Below the pieces are notes generated by a model that saw nothing but the letters and a program-made list of their open reading frames with translations, was not told the DNA's origin and ran no database searches. The position numbers and the translations under genes were made by a program. Positions 21,727 to 63,122 of a stretch of 64,000 bases of DNA are shown here, piece after piece. The stretch comes from a virus. Position 1 is the stretch's first letter. Every line of letters begins with the position of its first letter. The DNA lies in the IMG/VR virus record IMGVR_UViG_3300025030_000071, positions 22,749 to 86,748 of that record; one strand, written 5' to 3'.

Positions 21727-24700
21727 TGGGTAACAGTAGCGATTCATTCTGGGGGGAGTATGTAGCTCCAGCTGCCTTATTAACGGGAGCCGGGATCACT
21801 GGCTATCGCACATTCCAACAAGTAAGTGCAGGTCGTATATCTGCACCTTGGCGCCAGCAAAAAGAACAAAAAGACCTTCTCCAAAAACTAAAGAGTGCAA
21901 GAGCTAACCGCTATGAAATCTCTGCAACTGATTTAGCAGATGCTTTAGACTTTGATACTAGCCGATATAAAGGCTTTAACATCTTTACAAAGAACAGAAG
22001 CAAAATTGAACCAGCATTTAAAACAGCCAAAGAACTAACCGTCAAGAGCCTATTACGTTCTTTTAACTTAAGCTCCTATGCTCAAACAGAACTAAAGGTT
22101 AACTTAGAGAATTTAGGCGATATATCAGCAGCTAACCTAAGGCATTTAATAGGGCTTTCGCCAAGCCACAAACAGCATGTTGAAAGAGTTGCTCGCTCAA
22201 CGGGTTTATTACATTTAGTGGATATCCCTGGCGCTGATACGGCAACAGGTCAATCGCTAGAAAAAAGAGCTAAGTTAGCTTACAAACAACTCATCACAGG
22301 GCATGAAGGACTTATAGACAGAACAGCTCCTGATCTTGGTGCTTTTATGGAAGAGCATAATATCTCAAGCGAGATACAAAAGCACAGAAGAATAAAACAG
22401 ATACAGATGGATTCTCCCGAAGTTATCGCTGCATATTTTGAAGAATATGGCTTTGGCAAAAGAGAAGACTTAATAGCTAAAACCCATCGTCTTTTCCAAG
22501 CCGCTAAAGGCAAGGGGTTAAAGACTCAATTAATCCTCTTAAAAGAAGGCGCCAGAACAGAACTCTCCCAAGTAAGAATCTCAAGTGGTAAAGCATTCCA
22601 GGATATCCCAATCCAGCAAGCTAACGGAAGAATAAGACTTGGTGCATTAAGCCCAACTGAATATGTAGCTAGACAGGCTTTAAATCCAGGAGAAATGAGA
22701 TCATATTTAGCTGGCAATAAAGGCACAAAGATCAGTATGGGTGCTGACGAATTCCTGATGGATTACTTTACTGAGAATATGGATGATCTTGTTGAAGGCG
22801 ATAAGTACAAGAGGTTTGTACGTTCTCATATCCAAGTAGGCAGAGAAGATATGGGTAGATTACTCATCCCTACTGTTGCTAATGAAGGACTCAATGTAAA
22901 GCGTGTCTATGAAATGGCTGCTAAAGGATTTGGCGCTTCTGCCGACGAACTCTCTTCTTTGAGAAAGATGTTAGCTGAACGCAATAACTACGACCCAGTC
23001 GCTGGCCTCGGTCCAAACCAGGTTACAAATGATGTTTTTACCCTTCCTCATCCTAGCGGGAGAATAGCAGGTTCACTTCCGGTAGGATACTCTGCTGATT
23101 CCAGAACTACAGCCCAGAGATCACGTCCTTTTAAAATCTTAAATGAAGGTAGGGGCGCAAGTACTAAATTTGTGGGGATGTTAGAAGAGCAATCAGGGGA
23201 CCAGATGCTGCGCATGCGCACAGCGGCAATTCCAGAAGAACATTTAAATGCTTTGCTTGCTGGCTCCAGTAGACCTGAGCTAAGAGCTAATGATGATATC
23301 CTATTTTTATTGGATCGTAATATTAGATATGGTGAAAGCCGCACCATAAGATTAGGTAAAAGCAATCTTCAATCTGCCAAACTTGAAGAACTTCTACAAA
23401 ACGAGACATTAAGGAGGCACGCTTTTGGAGAAGGCATCCAAGCTAGAATCTCTTTCCTTGAAGGTTTAGGTGGAGATACCATAACCGCAGAACAAAAAGC
23501 GGAAAGAGATCTGTTAGAACAAGCTAGAAGGATTTCTCCATCTGAAATTCTTGGGGAATCCTCAAAGGGGGGCTTTCAGAAAGGCCCAAAGTCTGGGAAT
23601 TTTCTTCTAGACAAAATCTTAGAAGATCCAAAGACTGGTGAACTTGCTTTAGCAGGGATGGACGAAAGAACCTTGGGGGATACTGAAAAACTCTTCGGCA
23701 ATAAAAAAGTTATTCAGATGGTGCCTGCAAGGACAGAATTCCGGGGTCTGGCTACTATATATGAAATGGCCAAAGGGTCGTCAGACATATTGCCAATTAT
23801 GGCGCTACCTGAAGGGCCAGAACGTGCCGCTGCATTAAAAGATTTCTATGGTAAATATATGGATGCTTTCCGCAGAAGCTACGGTAAGGCAATAAAATCC
23901 AACAACGGATTTACTTATAGGATTGACCCCAACACAGGTTCTACACACCACATCACTGTAGAAGAAATCATTCGAGGTACCCCAGAATTTAGGGATTTTG
24001 AATTAGGTCCACCAACGGAACCAGAAGTCTTGAGAAGAGCCCCAATTGAAGAGGCTTTAAGAAGAACCCGGGGGGTACAAGCAGTTGAGTCTCAGGGTAT
24101 AAAGAAAATAGGTGAAAAATCCCTAGATACAATCACGACTGCTATGCTTGCAGAACTTTCTGAAAGACACCAGGGAATAGTTAGGGAAGCCGATACAGCA
24201 GCTGCTCATCTCGCAGGTTCTAGTGGCCTAGGTGGCGATTATTCTGATTGGCAAAGAGCCTATTCAGAAGGAGGCGCAGAAAAAGCAAGATTCGGCCATG
24301 CCTTAAGAAGTGGGATAAAAGGTGAAGAATTGGCAGCGGCCAGAGCTGGGATGAAGCGAGCGAAATGGCTTTCTTCTGAAACTGCAAGACTAGACCCCTC
24401 AGTTCAAGGATCCCAATTTACAATTGGCCAATACCAAAAAGAAAGAAGAGACATAGAAGGTTTCTTCGCAGAAGTCGGCATCACCCCAGGAAAAGATAAC
24501 ATCTATAGATATCAAGATGCCCTTACCACATTAAGAGACCCTAGATCAACACAAAATGTAACCAACTTGTTTGATAAGGCCTTGGGGCTTACAAGAGACA
24601 TCGGGATGAGAAATAAGCTTTCTCTTTGGAGCACATCTCAACTCTTTGCAGATATTGCCTCACAACTAGAAGGGTTCAAGGAGAAAGGAGATCTAAGTAC

Positions 24701-56191: not shown

Positions 56192-56819
56192 CTCTGAGGT
56201 CTTCTGAACTAGCAACACCAGCCCACTTAATATTATAGGTCTCACCTGGAAGGAACCCTCGCCAGTGCTGCACTGGAGGAGTACTACAAATATACTTAAC
56301 AAATTTTATATTTGGATAACCTTCAATCGAATCATAGAACCTAGCTACACAGCGAAGGTTCTCAAAGACCTTGCCTACCGACTTGCCAGTCTTTTCGTCC
56401 TTCCCAGTAATAAGGGCTATTGTCTTTCCATGTAGGGAATCCATCTGTCTATAAGGCTCTTCACCTTGTTTGTAGAAGAGTTCAACCTTATAATGTTTAC
56501 CACCTTCTTTAGTGGTCTTGATAGCAAATGGTTCTAGTATATCAGCGACCCATTTCTTCCCTTCTGCGAATTTGACTCGGATCTCAGACCCGTCGCCAAT
56601 TTCATAAAAATTAACTCCAAGATCAAAATCTTTTCGAAATACAACCTGTTCCTCTTCATCCTCGGCAACCGAGGCTTCCACAGGACCAGATTCAAACCCC
56701 TCACCAAAAGCCCCAGGATCCATTTTAAGCTCCGAGGAATCTTTTTCTATAGGGTCACCTAGGGTCCCTTTTTCTGAGGGCTTAAAAACGATCGCTTTTT
56801 CTTTCTTCTTATTAGCCAT
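56184..56819 (-). CDS. Hypothetical protein
   Basis: 211 aa, AGGAG SD within upstream gene; last gene of minus-strand block. Confidence 0.75.
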   Translation of the reverse strand: MANKKKEKAIVFKPSEKGTLGDPIEKDSSELKMDPGAFGEGFESGPVEASVAEDEEEQVVFRKDFDLGVNFYEIGDGSEIRVKFAEGKKWVADILEPFAIKTTKEGGKHYKVELFYKQGEEPYRQMDSLHGKTIALITGKDEKTGKSVGKVFENLRCVARFYDSIEGYPNIKFVKYICSTPPVQHWRGFLPGETYNIKWAGVASSEDLRAS

Positions 56820-57798
56820 TCAAAGCTCCTTCACGAATACCAACCAAATCAGCTTCAGGATTTGGTTTGCCATTCCTCAAATAACAAAAACTTCTATATT
56901 CACAATAAGACTGACACAAGAAATGGCCAGGAGTATCTTTAAGACTTGCTAACGGCTTACCTGCTTTTACCCAATCTTCATAGGCAGTTTTGCCTATTTC
57001 TTCTTCATCACGCAAAGCCTCAATCTCTTCTTCAGAATAAAATCTCTTATAAGTTCTTTCGGGAATAATCCCTTCATTAATATATCTCATTTCTTCTTCA
57101 GTTGAAGCATAAATATCTTCTACAGAAAAACGTTTTTCAATATATGGAAGGAAATCTTCAGTCTCTAACTTGGCATAATGCTTACCATCAATTTCTACAA
57201 GAGTAACTGTATATTCCCTATACATGCCTGTTTGATCACGAGGAATATAAATCAACTGGAACCAATCAAGAACAAAGTCAGTTCCTTTTCCTTCAGAACA
57301 CTCCCAAAGGTAAATCATAGTCTGCATCAAAGCACTATCTTTTGGTTTCGGTTGAAATGCAGGCTGTCCTTTCCAGGGTCTAGCTCTACCTTTAATATGC
57401 TTTAAAGCACCCTGACCCCAACAACTTTTTGCTTCGGTGCCGTAGTACCTAGTGCTGCTATCGTCTGCTCTATAACGCCCAACAATGTCTAATTTACCCG
57501 AAAGATTAAAATCTTTTACATAGACCCGAACATCTTCGTGTTCATAGATACCTGCTCGCTTCATACCCTCGATAATAGCTTTCTCAACAGCATTGCCTAA
57601 AATGTGTGACAATTTAATATATAGATTGCTTGGGTCAGAATCAGGCACATCATGTATCCGATACCAATCCGCCCTCCAACAACCACCTATCTGTCTGCCA
57701 TTAGCCAGCTTAACTGAAGCCGAACTAGGATATAAAGTAGGATTTCTTCTTTCAGTAGGATGCCTTTTTCTAGTTAATTCCCTTTCAACAATAGGCAT
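56812..57798 (-). CDS. Cas4-like PD-(D/E)XK exonuclease with 4-Cys Fe-S cluster
   Basis: 'PSS...C.R..WY', 'GKLD...EAKS', 'QTMIY', C-term 'CQSYCEYRSFC'; ATG 57798 preferred as start. Confidence 0.75.
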   Translation of the reverse strand: MPIVERELTRKRHPTERRNPTLYPSSASVKLANGRQIGGCWRADWYRIHDVPDSDPSNLYIKLSHILGNAVEKAIIEGMKRAGIYEHEDVRVYVKDFNLSGKLDIVGRYRADDSSTRYYGTEAKSCWGQGALKHIKGRARPWKGQPAFQPKPKDSALMQTMIYLWECSEGKGTDFVLDWFQLIYIPRDQTGMYREYTVTLVEIDGKHYAKLETEDFLPYIEKRFSVEDIYASTEEEMRYINEGIIPERTYKRFYSEEEIEALRDEEEIGKTAYEDWVKAGKPLASLKDTPGHFLCQSYCEYRSFCYLRNGKPNPEADLVGIREGALNG

Positions 57799-57802
57799 TA
57801 AA

Positions 57803-58702
57803 TTAAAAACCAATTCTTTTCTCCGTTTTTATTACATCAGTAATATGCGACTCAAGTCCTATTGAAAAATCATTAAATGAAATCAAAGAAACATCTGCTA
57901 GACTTAAGTCTTTATTGTCATTAGCTAATGCAAAATGCTCTCTAGCTTTATTCAACAATAAATTTTCCACTATGTCCCTGACTGAAGCACCAGTCAAAGA
58001 CTTCACTTTGCTTATAGAAATATCATAAGGACTAAAATCAAAAAGCTTTCTACTTACTCGGTTCTCAGCTAATCTCATGTGCTTATCCATTACTATCAAA
58101 ACATCTTCAGGTAACAAAGGAAGAAACTTAATTTCTTTAAACCTGCCAGGCCTTTTCAAAGCCTTATCAACAGTTTCCCAGACATTTGAAGTAGCAATGA
58201 TAGTAAAGTTTTCACAATCTTCTAAACCACCATCAATCCATTTAATAAAAAAGTTAGTCTTTTTCTTATCACCACTATGGGCATTGGCTTCTGTTCTATC
58301 TTGAAAAAGCATATCAGCTTCATCAATCAAGATAAGTACATGCCCATGTTCTTTAGATACCTTAGCAGCTAAAGCTTTAAATTCCCTTAGTTTTGAAATT
58401 GCATCATCATACAAATGAGAAGCTAAATCTTCATAACTAAGTTCCATTAACGGGCATTGTATCTCGTTAGCTAAAGCCCTAACACTGGCCGTCTTACCCG
58501 TTCCGGGTGGCCCAGTTAAAGCAATAGCATTAGGTTTCTTTACTGCCCAAGATTCAAAAATACCTGGGAAAGAAACTTGATTAACTAAGTCTCTTAAAGC
58601 TTCTATGGCCTCTTTTTGACCGACAATAAAATCCAATCTTATGTCAGGCTCAACGACCACTAAGCTATCACTAAAATCTATTTCAGTCTCTTTCCTTTCC
58701 AC
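57803..58702 (-). CDS. AAA+ ATPase (classic AAA clade)
   Basis: Walker A GPPGTGKT, Walker B ILIDEAD, SRH 'IATSN..ETVD.ALKRPGRF'. Confidence 0.9.
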   Translation of the reverse strand: MERKETEIDFSDSLVVVEPDIRLDFIVGQKEAIEALRDLVNQVSFPGIFESWAVKKPNAIALTGPPGTGKTASVRALANEIQCPLMELSYEDLASHLYDDAISKLREFKALAAKVSKEHGHVLILIDEADMLFQDRTEANAHSGDKKKTNFFIKWIDGGLEDCENFTIIATSNVWETVDKALKRPGRFKEIKFLPLLPEDVLIVMDKHMRLAENRVSRKLFDFSPYDISISKVKSLTGASVRDIVENLLLNKAREHFALANDNKDLSLADVSLISFNDFSIGLESHITDVIKTEKRIGF

Positions 58703-59483
58703 TATTATAATATTCCTGCAATTTACTATGGATACTATTTAAATGTCTCTTAATAGTATCTTTATCTCGTTGTAACCTTTCTCCAATCGCCACCACGGAC
58801 AAACCTTCTCTATAAACTAAAGAAAGCAAATACCTTTCATATACAGTTAACCTCTTATAAATTGTTTCTATCGGCGACATAACCCAGTTAAGATCAAAAT
58901 CAGTTTTAATTAACTCTGGATCTTCATCGGTTAAACTATGCATATCGATCAAGAAATCCATAGGATCTCCATAAGTCTCATCTTCTTGGCAATCAGAAAA
59001 ACTTACTTTCTTATTTAATGGATCTCTTACAAACTTTGTAAACCAATCTTTTAATCTAAATCTAAACATCTTAGTCAAAGGATTAGAAGCATCTACTCCT
59101 TCATGGATTGTGTACCTACTAAGATAAGTTAAAAAGATAAGCGTAAATTCAGCTTTCAGATCTTCTTTAGTAAGTCCTCGTGCTGAATGAACAATGTAAT
59201 TACGTTGATGAATGAAATTAGCGAATGTTTTTGGGCGCCCACTTAAGAACAAACCAAGAAAAACTCTAGTATCATAATTCTTTAAATCGATAGGTGCCCC
59301 AAGAAATAAACTTACATATTTCTCTAAATACCCATCAAAGAATTCTAATATCTGAGCTTGAGCATAACGCTTTTCTTTTGCTTCTCCATTAATATATTGA
59401 TAACACAAGATATTAATAAGATCGATATCTTCATTTTGGATCTTACGTCCAAGGGCTTTTTCTTTCTCAGTAACAAGGGCCAA
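58683..59483 (-). CDS. Phage sigma-70-family-like transcription factor
   Basis: Region-2-like 'EDL.AEF...F.....RY' and region-4 HTH 'LT.YER.LL.L.Y.EGLS...IG.RL......IK'; TTG start with GAGGAG SD. Confidence 0.65.
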   Translation of the reverse strand: MALVTEKEKALGRKIQNEDIDLINILCYQYINGEAKEKRYAQAQILEFFDGYLEKYVSLFLGAPIDLKNYDTRVFLGLFLSGRPKTFANFIHQRNYIVHSARGLTKEDLKAEFTLIFLTYLSRYTIHEGVDASNPLTKMFRFRLKDWFTKFVRDPLNKKVSFSDCQEDETYGDPMDFLIDMHSLTDEDPELIKTDFDLNWVMSPIETIYKRLTVYERYLLSLVYREGLSVVAIGERLQRDKDTIKRHLNSIHSKLQEYYNSGKERD

Positions 59484-59518
59484 GAACAGCTCTCCTCGCT
59501 ACACCATCCATCTACATT

Positions 59519-60010
59519 TTAGATTACTTCGTTATAAAAACTCAAATAAATCTTAGTACTTGGAGGACAAGAAACTTTTTTATTGTCCTCATCTCGCATC
59601 ACACCGGCATAATACTTACGGCAATCCATAAACCAAACTTGTCTGTCATCCTTCCACGCAATACCAGTTAATGCATCAAGCATAGCTTTTAAAACATTAT
59701 CTATATCAGGCTTTGCTAAATGATGGATAGGATCCATGCCGAGTCTTTCCTGCATCATACCTACCGGCCGAGGAAAATAAAAATGAGCCCCAACTTGTAC
59801 TAATCCCTGATGAGGGAAAGCAACCTTCTTCTCAACAGCAATCTTTCCAAGAGCATTTTCAAAACCCTCTCTAACCGCTTGTTTATATTCCTTAACATTA
59901 TTATCATTAGGAGTATACATCTTAATAAGGTTACCACGCCTAGCGGCTTTAATTCTGGGTTGAGCTATTGGTCTACCAAGAACCTCATAATCAATCAATA
60001 TCATTCTCAT
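59519..60010 (-). CDS. rusA: RusA-family Holliday junction resolvase
   Basis: 'KPDIDNVLKAMLDALTGIAWKDDRQV' RusA catalytic signature. Confidence 0.9.
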   Translation of the reverse strand: MRMILIDYEVLGRPIAQPRIKAARRGNLIKMYTPNDNNVKEYKQAVREGFENALGKIAVEKKVAFPHQGLVQVGAHFYFPRPVGMMQERLGMDPIHHLAKPDIDNVLKAMLDALTGIAWKDDRQVWFMDCRKYYAGVMRDEDNKKVSCPPSTKIYLSFYNEVI

Positions 60011-60367
60011 CCCCTAGGCTTCTTTTATAAGCTTTAGCTAACTGATATTTTTCCTTTCTAATACTTTTAGCTAACTCTTTTCTCTCTTGATAGTAACTAC
60101 TTTCTTTATATAGTTCATAAGAACATCGCCAACAACTTCTCTTATATCTAACCCAATTATCTGAAGTATTTTCCTTTATAGCAGTTAAGCATTTATCCTT
60201 AAAAGAAACAATATCAGTTAAATCATCATCAAACCAAATACAAATTAAACTGATACCTTGCTCAACGCAAAGGTCCTCTTTCCGCTTATCCCTATGCTTA
60301 GAAGCTAAAAACCCACCTTGATCTTTATGGAAGTGCTCAACAAATTCCCTATGCTGTCTTCCATGAC
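59991..60367 (-). CDS. Exon 2 of intron-split Vsr/DUF559-like nuclease
   Basis: Open frame (C)HGRQHREFVEHFH...RDKRKEDLCVEQGISLICIW...DENDID*, no start codon of its own in frame; absent from ORF track. Confidence 0.8.
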
Positions 60368-61454
60368 CAGTTTTGTTATCACTAAAGTTTTTTATCTCTA
60401 GTTTCTATATGTCACCATATAGCTCAGCATATATCATCGCCCTCGACTCTACGTTAGGGCGTCCAGCGCTCGTGGTAGTTTTATTGGATGAGTTCCTCAA
60501 CTACTATGCGTTGCACCTTCCATCTTACTTTGATACTCTTCTGATGGCTTGGCTCAGAATTTTCTGCAATTGTTTTTCATCTAGCCAATAAGGCTGTGAA
60601 GTATCTAAACGCAATAAATAAATATCATTTTCCAAACAAAAAGCATCTTTAATTAGATCTTTTTCTCTTTGATAAAAATATCTTTCATCACCATAAAGGC
60701 CTTTTATCCTATGTATAGGGCCATCAACCTCAATAGCAAAATTAATCGATGGTATCCAAAAATCTAATTCTAAAAAACAATTAGTTACAAGATTCTTAAT
60801 TAAGGAACGATGTCTCCTAAAAACAAGTTCTCTATTAACTAAATTTGCCAAAAGATTAAAAACATAGTCTTCTGCTCCGGACTGCCCCAGCGGCTTAACA
60901 CCTTTTTGACGCCTATACTTTTTTAAACGTGATCGCTCTTTAACTAAGCATCCATCACATTTTACAAAATTAGTAATAGGCTGAGCGCATTCTGTGCACA
61001 AACCATTAGATTTAAGATAAGCTCTTCTTTTCCGCCTTTTTAAACGAATTTCAGTTTTTTCTTCATCAGTAAAATTTTTTCTTCTGTTTTTCTTTTCAAC
61101 AGATTCTCTTTCTTTTTTTCTATCTGATGCACAAAAAAAACAGTATACATTCCTAGTATGCTTATCAATCTTTGTTTCACAAGTTTTACACGATCTATAA
61201 AGCTGAATCTTTAGCTTTTGCTCACGCTTTTCACTATAGATTTTTCTAGAATAAATACGTTTACGCTCTAACTCAAAAATAGTTTTACATTCAAAACAAC
61301 GTTTTTTATTACCATGACCAAATAATTCTTTATTACACTCTAAACAATTCATTAGATATACTCCATAAACTAAATGTTGTATACCTCGCAATAACAGACT
61401 TCCTCTGAATTCACTGGATTATTCGACTATAATTTCTTATAGAAGGAGCAATCT
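60368..61454 (-). ncRNA. Group I self-splicing intron (1087 nt) with internal nuclease ORF
   Basis: P1 GAGU/GCUC with U-G at the 5' splice site; P3 CCAGUG/CGCUGG; P4 UUCAGA/UCUGAG; P7 GCAUA/UAUGC; P9 CUAUAUG-GUGA-CAUAUAG; terminal G; removal restores the reading frame. Confidence 0.88.
60525..61352 (-). CDS. Intron-encoded putative homing endonuclease (Zn-ribbon repeats + Vsr/DUF559-like domain)
   Basis: ATG 61352 with GGAG SD; six CxxC motifs, Lys/Arg-rich; 'ELDFWIP....AIEVDGPIH...KD..KD.FC....I.LLR'. Confidence 0.8.
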   Translation of the reverse strand: MNCLECNKELFGHGNKKRCFECKTIFELERKRIYSRKIYSEKREQKLKIQLYRSCKTCETKIDKHTRNVYCFFCASDRKKERESVEKKNRRKNFTDEEKTEIRLKRRKRRAYLKSNGLCTECAQPITNFVKCDGCLVKERSRLKKYRRQKGVKPLGQSGAEDYVFNLLANLVNRELVFRRHRSLIKNLVTNCFLELDFWIPSINFAIEVDGPIHRIKGLYGDERYFYQREKDLIKDAFCLENDIYLLRLDTSQPYWLDEKQLQKILSQAIRRVSK

Positions 61455-61593
61455 ACTCTATTCCAAGACCATAATCTGGCAAATAAAAATCCAGCCTAAG
61501 CCCTTCACCTAAATGAAACTCAGACTGGATCTTTACATCTATCCCAAAAATATTAAGTATTAAATCTTTAACTTGCTCCGATAACTTTGACAT
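61455..61593 (-). CDS. Exon 1 of intron-split Vsr/DUF559-like nuclease
   Basis: MSKLSEQVKDLILNIFGIDVKIQSEFHLGEGLRLDFYLPDYGLGIE plus 1 nt; joins exon 2 to give GIECHGRQH, 171 aa total. Confidence 0.8.
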
Positions 61594-61897
61594 TATTCCA
61601 CACCGATATTGGCCTATTAATTGATGTAGGAGGAATTCTCCAAACTACTGGCCCATCCTTATAGGCACAGATACAAATCTCACAATCAAGAATACCTAAA
61701 TCTTTATACATATCTAACAAAGCAATCATGTCTCCCGAAATACCGAAGACTTCTTTTACACCCTTTAACCATTTGGCATCATCAGAATTCTCATAACGAT
61801 AATACCAAACAAAGTCTTTAATATGTTCTAAATCACTTTCGTTCCAGATGCTACCCTTAACACCTGGAAAAATTCTATATGATTCACCTTTTTTCAT
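61568..61897 (-). CDS. Hypothetical protein
   Basis: 109 aa, ATGA-coupled to upstream gene. Confidence 0.65.
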   Translation of the reverse strand: MKKGESYRIFPGVKGSIWNESDLEHIKDFVWYYRYENSDDAKWLKGVKEVFGISGDMIALLDMYKDLGILDCEICICAYKDGPVVWRIPPTSINRPISVWNNVKVIGAS

Positions 61898-62586
61898 CTA
61901 ACATTAACCGCCTCACATACCGAAACCAAAGGGCATGTAATACAAGAACTCGTATTAGGATATGTAGTTTTAATCTGCATAGATTGCATAACAGAAGCAA
62001 AATCTAATAAAGCAGATTCAAAATATCGGTTGGTAGGCTTCATCTCTAACGCAGACAGCAAACGAATAGGGCCAACTGCAAGAACATAGATCTTGTTTAC
62101 AGGTAAATCCTCATTTAAAACAACACTCGTATAACGAACAGAAGGCTCAACAAACAAAAGATTTTCATTAAGAGTACTATTCAAAATAAAAACCAGATCT
62201 ACTTTACCAGCAGTTTGTATAACAACTGGAATTTCAGAAACAAGTTGATGACCGTAAACTAAAGAAGAAGACATGCTATAATTTACGGCTAAAACTTCTC
62301 CATTTACATCAGTATACCAGTCATACAATTTGGTTAAAAGTAATATTGATTGGTTAAATTCTTTCTGAGTGAATTCAACAACAGAAGCTTCGCATAAAGA
62401 CTTCCATTTCTTCTCAAATCTAGCCCAAGAAAACTTTCCTCCAGATTCCATATCATGCCTAAAAGCAAACTCAACTATTTGCCTAACAAGAAGTGCATAA
62501 TCCGTTAAAGGTGCCACATGGCCACCTTGTTCATAGAATTTAGGACAAAAAGAAAAACCCACTAACTCATTTATAGATGCTTTCAT
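61894..62586 (-). CDS. Degenerate Cas4/AddB-like PD-(D/E)XK-fold protein
   Basis: N-term 'FCPKFY', C-term 'PN...C..CP....C' Fe-S cysteines, 'GKVDLV' but no following (D/E)xK. Confidence 0.55.
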   Translation of the reverse strand: MKASINELVGFSFCPKFYEQGGHVAPLTDYALLVRQIVEFAFRHDMESGGKFSWARFEKKWKSLCEASVVEFTQKEFNQSILLLTKLYDWYTDVNGEVLAVNYSMSSSLVYGHQLVSEIPVVIQTAGKVDLVFILNSTLNENLLFVEPSVRYTSVVLNEDLPVNKIYVLAVGPIRLLSALEMKPTNRYFESALLDFASVMQSMQIKTTYPNTSSCITCPLVSVCEAVNVR

Positions 62587-63122
62587 GTTGCTTTAATATT
62601 CACCACCGTAAAAGAAATACAATCTTTGTTCTCTTCTATCATCTGTTTTAGTTTTCTTTGATCATCATTAAGTCTGGCATTCTTACCAGTCTTAACATCC
62701 ATAAATTCAATACAACCAAGGCTATTTTCATCTGGAAACTTAATAGCTAAGAAATCTACTATGTCATTAATAGGAATCAATCTATCGTAATCTGACTTAA
62801 GCTTTAAAAAACCAATAAGTTCACCCATCTTACCGCTAGTTGTATTCACCGAACCTTGGATAACATTAAGAGTTTTGGTTGGAACATCTTTTAACTGGCT
62901 TTGGAGATTGCTTAATTGTCTGTCTTGAGTACCCAAAAAGTTTTGCATCTCTCTTAAAGAATCCCTCATGCCACCACTAACATCAGAAACCTTTTGTCTT
63001 AAAGAAGAATTGGCATCCTTTTCGGAGTTTAGTTGTTTTACAAGTTCAGCCAACGTCTTACCCTGGCGCCATAAAACAAAACTAGAACATACTATGCACA
63101 CAATAATAACCAACCAAGTCAC
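62583..63122 (-). CDS. Membrane-anchored endonuclease related to archaeal Holliday junction resolvase (Endonuc_Holl-like)
   Basis: N-terminal TM helix + coiled coil; 'GK.GE...VDFL...IEF.DVKTG.NARL...QR.LK..IE'. Confidence 0.7.
   Translation of the reverse strand: MTWLVIIVCIVCSSFVLWRQGKTLAELVKQLNSEKDANSSLRQKVSDVSGGMRDSLREMQNFLGTQDRQLSNLQSQLKDVPTKTLNVIQGSVNTTSGKMGELIGFLKLKSDYDRLIPINDIVDFLAIKFPDENSLGCIEFMDVKTGKNARLNDDQRKLKQMIEENKDCISFTVVNIKAT

Follow-up and report, generated by a model that had tools for sequence, protein, structure and literature searches.

A group I intron encoding a predicted EDxHD (Vsr-like) homing endonuclease interrupts the active-site codons of a Vsr-like nuclease gene in a groundwater phage

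Homing endonucleases of the EDxHD family are exemplified by I-Bth0305I, which is encoded in a group I intron of the recA gene of Bacillus thuringiensis phage 0305phi8-36 (PDB entry 3R3P) and whose motif residues are E170, D196, N208, H213, and D222 (PMC3239194). Vsr-like endonucleases are also described as invading the DNA-metabolism genes of environmental phages, including a gene for an SbcD-like nuclease, in the available portion of Dassa et al. 2009 (PMC2677866); the cases in that portion are split inteins, intein-less fractures, and recA introns, unlike the one analyzed here, and no target gene homologous to the endonuclease itself is described there. The present analysis concerns a 64,000-nucleotide (nt) stretch of viral DNA, positions 22,749 to 86,748 of the IMG/VR record IMGVR_UViG_3300025030_000071 (hereafter, the window). 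The locus in question is best read, with a probability of about 0.85, as a mobile group I intron that carries an EDxHD (Vsr-like) homing endonuclease gene and is inserted into the active-site codons of a resident Vsr-like nuclease gene (the host gene) of a groundwater phage. Its principal features are as follows, where the open reading frame (ORF) within the intron is divided into two regions.

61593..61455, minus strand: exon 1 of the stand-alone Vsr-like nuclease gene, covering 46 full codons and the first base of the 47th, with the 3' end GGA ATA GAG T (from the ORF listing and the sequence)
61454..60368, minus strand: group I intron of 1,087 nt, which has the P7.1/P7.2 extension known from subgroup IA
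61352..60525, minus strand: intron ORF for a homing-type endonuclease of 275 amino acids (aa), with ATG at 61352 and the stop codon at 60527-60525
60903..61352, minus strand: N-terminal region of the intron ORF product (aa 1-150), three Cys4 zinc ribbons with a long basic helix after each
60537..60884, minus strand: EDxHD/Vsr-like nuclease domain of the same product (aa 157-272), recognized from the invariant columns of an alignment of its relatives (A2), hhalign, and Foldseek
60367..59991, minus strand: exon 2 of the nuclease gene, which opens with the remaining two bases of codon 47 and continues with HGRQHREFVEHFH, D73, K76, and a basic C-terminal helix

Similarly to I-Bth0305I, the window ORF belongs to a phage group I intron and joins an N-terminal region, here presumed to bind DNA, to a C-terminal Vsr-like catalytic domain with D197, H214, D232, and an acidic first-helix residue at the equivalent catalytic positions. 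The I-Bth0305I ORF is located in P5 (PMC3239194) and the window ORF in loop L5. The structural model of the window protein matches 3r3p in Foldseek with a probability of 0.99 and a template modeling (TM) score of 0.75 on the target, with no match at the sequence level. It differs from I-Bth0305I in further respects: the NUMOD/helix-turn-helix region is replaced by the three Cys4 zinc ribbons with their basic helices, the target is a Vsr-like nuclease gene instead of recA, and the end of the window ORF overlaps the P5'-P4'-P6 segment of the intron core.

All genes between 56.8 and 64 kb of the window lie on the minus strand according to the ORF listing. Taken alone, exon 1 is a short ORF (61593..61456) that ends in LRLDFYLPDYGLGIE and then runs into a stop codon; the exon 2 frame is open from 60404 to 59991, contains HGRQHREFVEHFH and RDKRK, and ends in a stop codon (59993-59991) that overlaps the start of the RusA gene. 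Joining T61455 to G60367 connects the two in frame into 139 + 377 nt = 516 nt, that is, 171 codons and a stop. The spliced host protein carries LRLDFYLPDYGLGIECHGRQH (D35 through H52) and reads GIE-C-HGRQH, in which Cys47 comes from the split codon. The interruption thus falls inside codon 47, between Glu46 and His48 (the position of Vsr His64) of the IE-x-HGRQH motif, in keeping with the proposal in the sequence-only reading of this DNA that the insertion had hit the catalytic codons of the host. Uninterrupted orthologues of 166 to 168 aa (P0001-P0003), found in marine and other metagenomes and 47-49% identical to the host protein, have GVE-V-HGRQH or GLE-Y-HGRQH here, without insertions or deletions; because they cross it without gaps, the splice junction is exact at the protein level. 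When the 86.7-kb record was searched with the host-family profile, three pieces matched, namely, exon 1 (profile positions 1-48), exon 2 (positions 50-100, E value of 3e-22), and the nuclease domain of the intron ORF. The observation of a split Vsr-like nuclease gene is confirmed.

The intron RNA was mapped by hand onto the Rfam consensus RF00028, with the help of two ORF-less relatives from the contigs L123 and L096. The core is formed by two parts that flank the ORF.

61353..61454, minus strand: 5' core part, with the P1 internal guide GCUC (61449-61446), P2 (61442-61427, GAAA loop), the 5' strands of P3 (61418-61412), P4 (61409-61403), and P5 (61398-61395), and a hairpin that precedes the ORF
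60368..60566, minus strand: 3' core part, with P5' (60566-60563), P4' (60559-60553), P6/P6a (60553-60515), P7 (60509-60505 with 60431-60427), P7.1, P7.2, P3' (60468-60462), P8 (60460-60439), P9 (60422-60405, GUGA loop), P9.1 (60402-60381), and the terminal G at 60368

In P1, the exon residues GAGU (61458-61455) pair with GCUC (61449-61446), which puts U61455 in a G.U pair at the 5' splice site, and the terminal G60368 directly precedes exon 2; the arrangement of P1 and the terminal G is identical in L087, a syntenic metagenomic contig considered below. The other core strands form a 6-bp P2 stem, P3 (UCCAGUG/CGCUGGA), P4 (UUCAGAG/UUCUGAG), P5 (UCUG/CAGA), and P7 (GCAUA/UAUGC). By the same hand mapping, the P, Q, R, and S elements characteristic of such introns are AAUUCAGAGGAAG, AAUUCUGAGCCAA, GGUGCAACGCAUAG, and GAUGAUAUAUGCUGAG, respectively, with GGUGCAACGCAUAG as the R element. 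Phage contigs yielded ∼30 related 3' halves when scanned for a motif and with an nhmmer profile. Among 24 relatives of the 3' half, pairing in the named helices amounts to 95.2%, compared to 76.8% for shuffled sequences and 22-49% for slid partners; changes on both sides are seen in 20 of the 29 pairs, and P7, P7.1, P8, P9, and P9.1 covary. The alignment of the window with L087 reveals compensatory changes in P2, P3, and P8. One family member, the ORF-less intron in L123 (6309-6469), overlaps an Rfam Intron_gpI match that scores 72.5 bits. Given the covarying core, the exact junction, and the recurrence of the insertion at this site in L087, the interrupting element, which the sequence-only reading had called an intron, is a group I intron, and it is predicted to be self-splicing.

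The ORF is located in L5, and its last ∼15 codons traverse P5', P4', and P6, with the stop codon in the P6a loop. Because of this overlap, the conserved peptide ILSQAI doubles as the Q element. In L087 (4846-4872) and in the proteins P0007, P0010, and P0011, the endonuclease ORF continues through P6 into the R element, and this read-through yields a conserved C-terminal peptide, (M/I)EGATH(N/S/R)(S/Q), that is set by the RNA sequence GGAAGGUGCAACGCAU; the window ORF ends earlier, in the P6a loop. At the other end of the ORF, the hairpin at 61353-61386 (4148-4176 in L087) abuts the endonuclease AUG, overlaps the Shine-Dalgarno sequence in part, and is conserved through compensatory changes (AGGUAUAC/GUAUAUCU versus GGGAGAC/GUCUCUC in L087), with z-scores of just -1.0 and -2.0. 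Similar hairpins shortly before the start codons of Vsr-like endonuclease genes are described in Dassa et al. 2009 (PMC2677866).

Among the closest known systems are also the group I introns in the terL genes of Staphylococcus phage 6ec-like siphoviruses. Over its last ∼64 nt, the window intron is 81-84% identical to the stretch that immediately precedes the 3' exon of the split terL gene in these phages, a similarity that covers the 3' core (P7-P9.1) and is alignable over ∼150 nt. Unlike the window intron, the 6ec-like introns reside in the large terminase gene and in other phages; like it, they are unscored by Rfam. A scan of viral contigs for the P4'-P6 element with 15-mers returned 116 stretches, none of them with endonuclease or host-family relatives; a few of these stretches are other group I introns. 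Several IMG/VR contigs (L105, L110, L112, and L123) contain two to four introns of this family within a few kilobases. In L096, which encodes a host-family nuclease, another gene ∼1.3 kb upstream is interrupted by an ORF-less member of the intron family.

The second case at the same site comes from L087, a 20-kb syntenic relative in which the host gene is split at the same codon by a homologous intron of 921 nt and its spliced reading is GVE-Y-HGRQH. The ORF of this intron encodes P0005, a protein of 231 aa with two zinc ribbons (three in the window protein), which is the closest relative of the window endonuclease at 38% identity. The intron is absent in the four orthologues from L083-L086. 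In the domain tree described below, the window host groups with the intron-less P0001 (97/86*) and the L087 host groups with the intron-less P0002 and P0003. The intron-bearing alleles are therefore not sisters on the host tree, which implies at least two gains or losses of the intron. Between the window and L087, the noncoding intron core is 79-85% identical, compared to 59-69% for the exons.

The sequencing runs listed for this locus are all DNA runs and none is an RNA run; they are groundwater metagenomes from a single study. The assembly graph of the probable source run is interrupted at ∼60786 and ∼61617 (window 60782-61630), and these points do not coincide with the intron boundaries. 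The k-mer depth is lower, at 4.8 versus ∼12, in the middle contig, which spans exon 1, the zinc-ribbon region, and the intron's 5' part; contig depth is weak evidence, and the lower value may reflect a second haplotype in the population.

The sequence-only reading had described an ORF at 60525-61352 with six CxxC motifs, and both these and the sequence motifs it quoted are found in the sequence by regular-expression search. The CxxC motifs start at residues 3, 19, 55, 71, 119, and 132 and pair into ribbons as 3/19, 55/71, and 119/132; in the AlphaFold model of the protein, for which the mean predicted local distance difference test (pLDDT) score is 91.6, the helices of the N-terminal region span residues 20-48, 72-92, 96-115, and 133-149. 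This region, which gives a weak match to Zn_ribbon_6 in Pfam, is presumed to be the DNA-binding part of the enzyme. The C-terminal domain carries LELDFWIPSINFAIEVDGPIH (D197 through H214), and its key residues are S158, E161, D197, E208, D210, H214, D232, and K235. The composite EDxHD motif is filled by E161 in the first helix, D197, D210 at the x position, H214, and D232, with D197, H214, and D232 invariant in the 27 relatives of alignment A2. Foldseek matches the model to 1cw0 with a probability of 1.00 and to 3r3p with a probability of 0.99. These modelled matches, together with the filled motif positions, support the assignment of the intron ORF to the EDxHD/Vsr-like homing-type nucleases, as had been proposed from the sequence; cleavage near the insertion point and homing are predicted activities.

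A word-indexed homologue search with the intron ORF returned only the query itself, Pfam scans of the intron ORF and both exons as single sequences gave nothing above the cut-off, and searches of PDB sequences (phmmer with the intron ORF and exon 2, hmmsearch with A2) retrieved neither Vsr nor 3R3P, the A2 matches being zinc-ribbon proteins only. The full HMMER scan detected 363 relatives of the intron ORF at E values of 1e-3 or lower. A scan of viral contigs with the endonuclease profile yielded 80 loci, none with split host-family exons; L130 alone among these resembles the 3' half of the window intron, and only weakly. In the nearest IMG/VR relatives of the host domain, this domain is C-terminal in proteins of 250 to 500 aa that have 2 to 8 N-terminal CxxC motifs. 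Such zinc-ribbon endonuclease-like proteins are often encoded in several copies per contig, jumbo-phage contigs included.

The two nuclease domains of the locus are homologous, and the sequence-only reading was right to place them in the same family. In a pairwise BLASTP comparison, the intron ORF and the host protein are 29% identical over 69 aa (E value of 6e-6), and alignment of the two family profiles with hhalign (A2 for the ORF family, A5 for the host family) gives a probability of 98.8% and an E value of 5.4e-17 over 109 columns, covering the whole domain. Both the intron ORF and exon 2 match the PHROG families phrog_559 and phrog_9084, and exon 1 matches phrog_559 only; within phrog_559, exon 1 aligns at 307-353 and exon 2 adjoins it at 356-416, and the intron ORF spans both segments continuously. 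All 15 of the 15 host-family members examined match both PHROG families. Profile searches had been named as the check that might place the two proteins in unrelated families, and the shared PHROGs and the hhalign E value speak for the opposite outcome. The host fold was modelled on the orthologue P0001 (pLDDT of 90.4), which is 49% identical to the spliced host protein of the window; Foldseek matches both this model and that of the intron ORF to Vsr (1vsr, 1cw0) and I-Bth0305I (3r3p) with probabilities of 0.99 to 1.00. The annotation of phrog_559 is "HNH endonuclease"; since both proteins align with profile positions 307-432 through their Vsr-like/EDxHD domain, the HNH label looks misleading for this segment.

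With the catalytic positions defined as for I-Bth0305I and Vsr (PMC3239194), the two proteins correspond as follows.

Vsr D51 position: D197 in the intron ORF, D35 in the host
Glu just before the x position: E208 in the intron ORF, E46 in the host
x position (Vsr H64): D210 in the intron ORF, H48 in the host
Vsr H69 position: H214 in the intron ORF, H52 in the host
Vsr D97 position: D232 in the intron ORF, D73 in the host

As these positions are filled in both proteins, the intron splits the IE|x|H catalytic stretch of the host.

The stand-alone family to which the host belongs was found at 22 loci in a metagenome scan, as proteins of 112 to 171 aa without an N-terminal extension. Its members share an almost invariant GRQHxEFVEHFH block that is specific to this family, and the residues of the window host include D35, E46, H48, H52, D73, K76, and the basic C-terminal helix. 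At the positions of Vsr D51, H69, and D97, the Asp, the second His, and the Asp are invariant in 15 family members. The Vsr fold is recognized at the level of structure, with 1vsr and 1cw0 as the top Foldseek matches of the P0001 model, and not by Pfam, in which no family scores above the cut-off and the weak matches are limited to PvuRts1I-like_N, DUF559, and DUF2726. The structure that the host-family model matches best is E. coli Vsr (1VSR, 1CW0), with an E value of 3e-4 and a probability of 1.00. As in Vsr, His occupies the His64 position, the D51 and D97 positions are Asp, and the H69 position is His; unlike Vsr, to which it is ∼18-20% identical, the host lacks a Vsr match in Pfam and the Vsr-type Cys/His zinc site, and it has the phage-specific GRQHxEFVEHFH block. 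Because the host sits in phage recombination and replication modules, T:G mismatch nicking should not be assumed for it.

The module around the split gene (56812-63122, minus strand) encodes at least three other predicted nucleases, namely, the first three of the proteins listed here.

62583-63122, minus strand: Endonuc_Holl-like protein
61894-62586, minus strand: Cas4-like protein of 230 aa with a C-terminal Cys cluster, without a Pfam match
59519-60010, minus strand: RusA
56812-57813, minus strand: 333-aa protein, PD-(D/E)XK-like by guess, without a Pfam match

The gene order is the same in the window and in L083-L087: Holliday-endonuclease-like protein, Cas4-like protein, small ORF, nuclease, RusA, sigma-like protein, AAA ATPase, and PD-(D/E)XK-like protein. 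The neighboring genes are 35-53% identical across this set. A scan of viral contigs with the RusA neighbor gene found no relatives. In a second group of phages (L088 3899-5348; also L089, L092, L093, and L097), a family member of 112 to 116 aa lies between recA, whose end it overlaps, and a DnaB-type helicase gene; L088 has, in this order, beta-clamp, ORF, RecA, nuclease, ORF, DnaB, ORF, and primase. The fixed gene order in L083-L087 and the placement between recA and DnaB in the second group indicate that the host gene can be regarded as a resident gene of the replication/recombination module, not a sporadic homing gene.

Taken together, these features suggest the following scheme. The 1,087-nt intron would be transcribed within the nuclease gene and fold into P1 through P9.1. 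Guanosine-initiated self-excision, with the 5' site after the U of the P1 G.U pair and the terminal G at 60368, would restore the GIE-C-HGRQH sequence of the nuclease. Translation of the L5 ORF is expected to produce an enzyme whose C-terminal nuclease domain follows three zinc-ribbon/basic-helix modules, the presumed readers of the DNA. During a mixed infection, intron-less alleles of the nuclease gene would be cleaved by this enzyme close to where the intron inserts, and repair templated by the intron-bearing allele would copy the intron in, resulting in homing.

Several observations weigh against this scheme. Rfam searches of window positions 59900-61700 at E values of 1 or lower produced no group I match to RF00028, with chance matches only; the group I model was also unmatched in 60355-60530 at E values of 10 or lower; and at the terL loci of Staphylococcus phage 6ec and Arcanobacterium phage TPWB06, which hold related introns, Rfam recognized only tRNAs. 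The 828-nt ORF in L5 is the likely cause of the miss on the window intron. Because of this miss, the fold rests on hand mapping and covariation. P1 has just 4 bp. The divergence between the endonucleases of the two intron copies (38% identity) is about that of the flanking genes, and it fits long vertical coresidence with losses as well as it fits recent homing. Finally, the contigs of two runs contain neither an intron-less allele nor the joined form.

The relationship between the two nucleases was analyzed in an unrooted IQ-TREE phylogeny of 71 domains and 114 columns. The stand-alone host family forms a single clade (97/96*), and the window intron ORF belongs to a different starred set of 20 rows (98/96*) together with other zinc-ribbon endonuclease-like proteins; the DFYLPDYN-type zinc-ribbon proteins are closer to the host family than the intron enzyme is. 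A tree constrained to hold the host family and both intron enzymes in a joint clade is 29 log-likelihood units worse, and the approximately unbiased (AU) test does not reject such a clade (P = 0.195). The shared family most likely reflects the fact that Vsr-like domains are common in phages both as resident and as homing enzymes, and not descent of one of these nucleases from the other, for which, in these sequence comparisons, there is no positive evidence and against which the statistical evidence is weak.

It is conceivable, if unlikely, that the host nuclease is itself selfish, which would make the locus a mobile element nested in another. The PHROGs that match its family best by profile carry annotations as homing or intron-encoded nucleases, and on the tree it stands among the DFYLPDYN-type zinc-ribbon endonuclease-like proteins, which occur in multiple copies per jumbo-phage contig. 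However, it has a fixed position and neighbor-like divergence in at least five related contigs, it occupies a fixed position after recA in another phage group, it lacks an N-terminal DNA-binding region, and its strongly conserved GRQHxEFVEHFH block is found in the stand-alone family only. Since the tree is unrooted, this evidence disfavors only the present-day form of the idea, and an ancient domestication may have taken place. In a more speculative reading, which we consider improbable, the stand-alone RecA/RusA-associated family and the zinc-ribbon EDxHD homing enzymes would be two states of one lineage, connected by domestication or recruitment. The intron enzyme would then recognize the DNA that encodes its own motif in a diverged form, and the locus would capture a transition between resident and selfish states, with self-immunity through codon divergence.

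There is also a slim chance that the intron endonuclease descends directly from the resident nuclease or its lineage, for example, by copying of the domain into an ORF-less intron and later acquisition of the zinc ribbons. The homology extends across the whole domain, the AU test retains the joint clade, and ORF-less introns of the same family do exist (L096 and L123). On the other hand, the best tree places the host and the intron enzyme in separate starred sets and is 29 log-likelihood units better than the constrained one, the two proteins are 29% identical to one another versus 36-63% for each to relatives elsewhere, and the layout of zinc ribbons followed by a C-terminal nuclease is seen in hundreds of phage proteins unlinked to the host gene. 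The suggestion in the sequence-only reading that the locus illustrates how homing enzymes arise from resident nucleases accordingly finds no support in the separate starred sets or in the identity values, with the joint clade retained at P = 0.195. The possibility that no splicing occurs and that a free-standing endonuclease gene simply broke the nuclease gene, leaving a fractured gene or a pseudogene, has precedents in intron-less fractures by Vsr-like endonuclease genes, such as that of an SbcD-like gene (PMC2677866), and is compatible with the silence of Rfam on the window, but it is very improbable, given that the ORF lies between the parts of a group I core that is conserved and covaries, the exon 1 frame does not continue free of stops, no start codon is available to exon 2 close to the junction, the junction lies within a codon and restores an invariant motif exactly, and both exons are intact in two diverged phages.

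Group I introns with endonuclease genes in phage DNA-metabolism genes, as well as the EDxHD family itself, are already known. The mobile intron proposed here adds a target gene that is homologous to the invader's catalytic domain and is interrupted at the shared catalytic motif, twice and in diverged phages. It also adds an EDxHD enzyme with a triple zinc-ribbon array in place of the NUMOD motifs, and a host from an unnamed, widespread family of stand-alone Vsr-like nucleases encoded beside RecA or RusA in phage recombination modules. By itself, the nuclease pair is no demonstration of the origin of homing enzymes; it offers a compact system for studying how a homing enzyme discriminates the motif of a related gene from its own and what role the resident nuclease plays.

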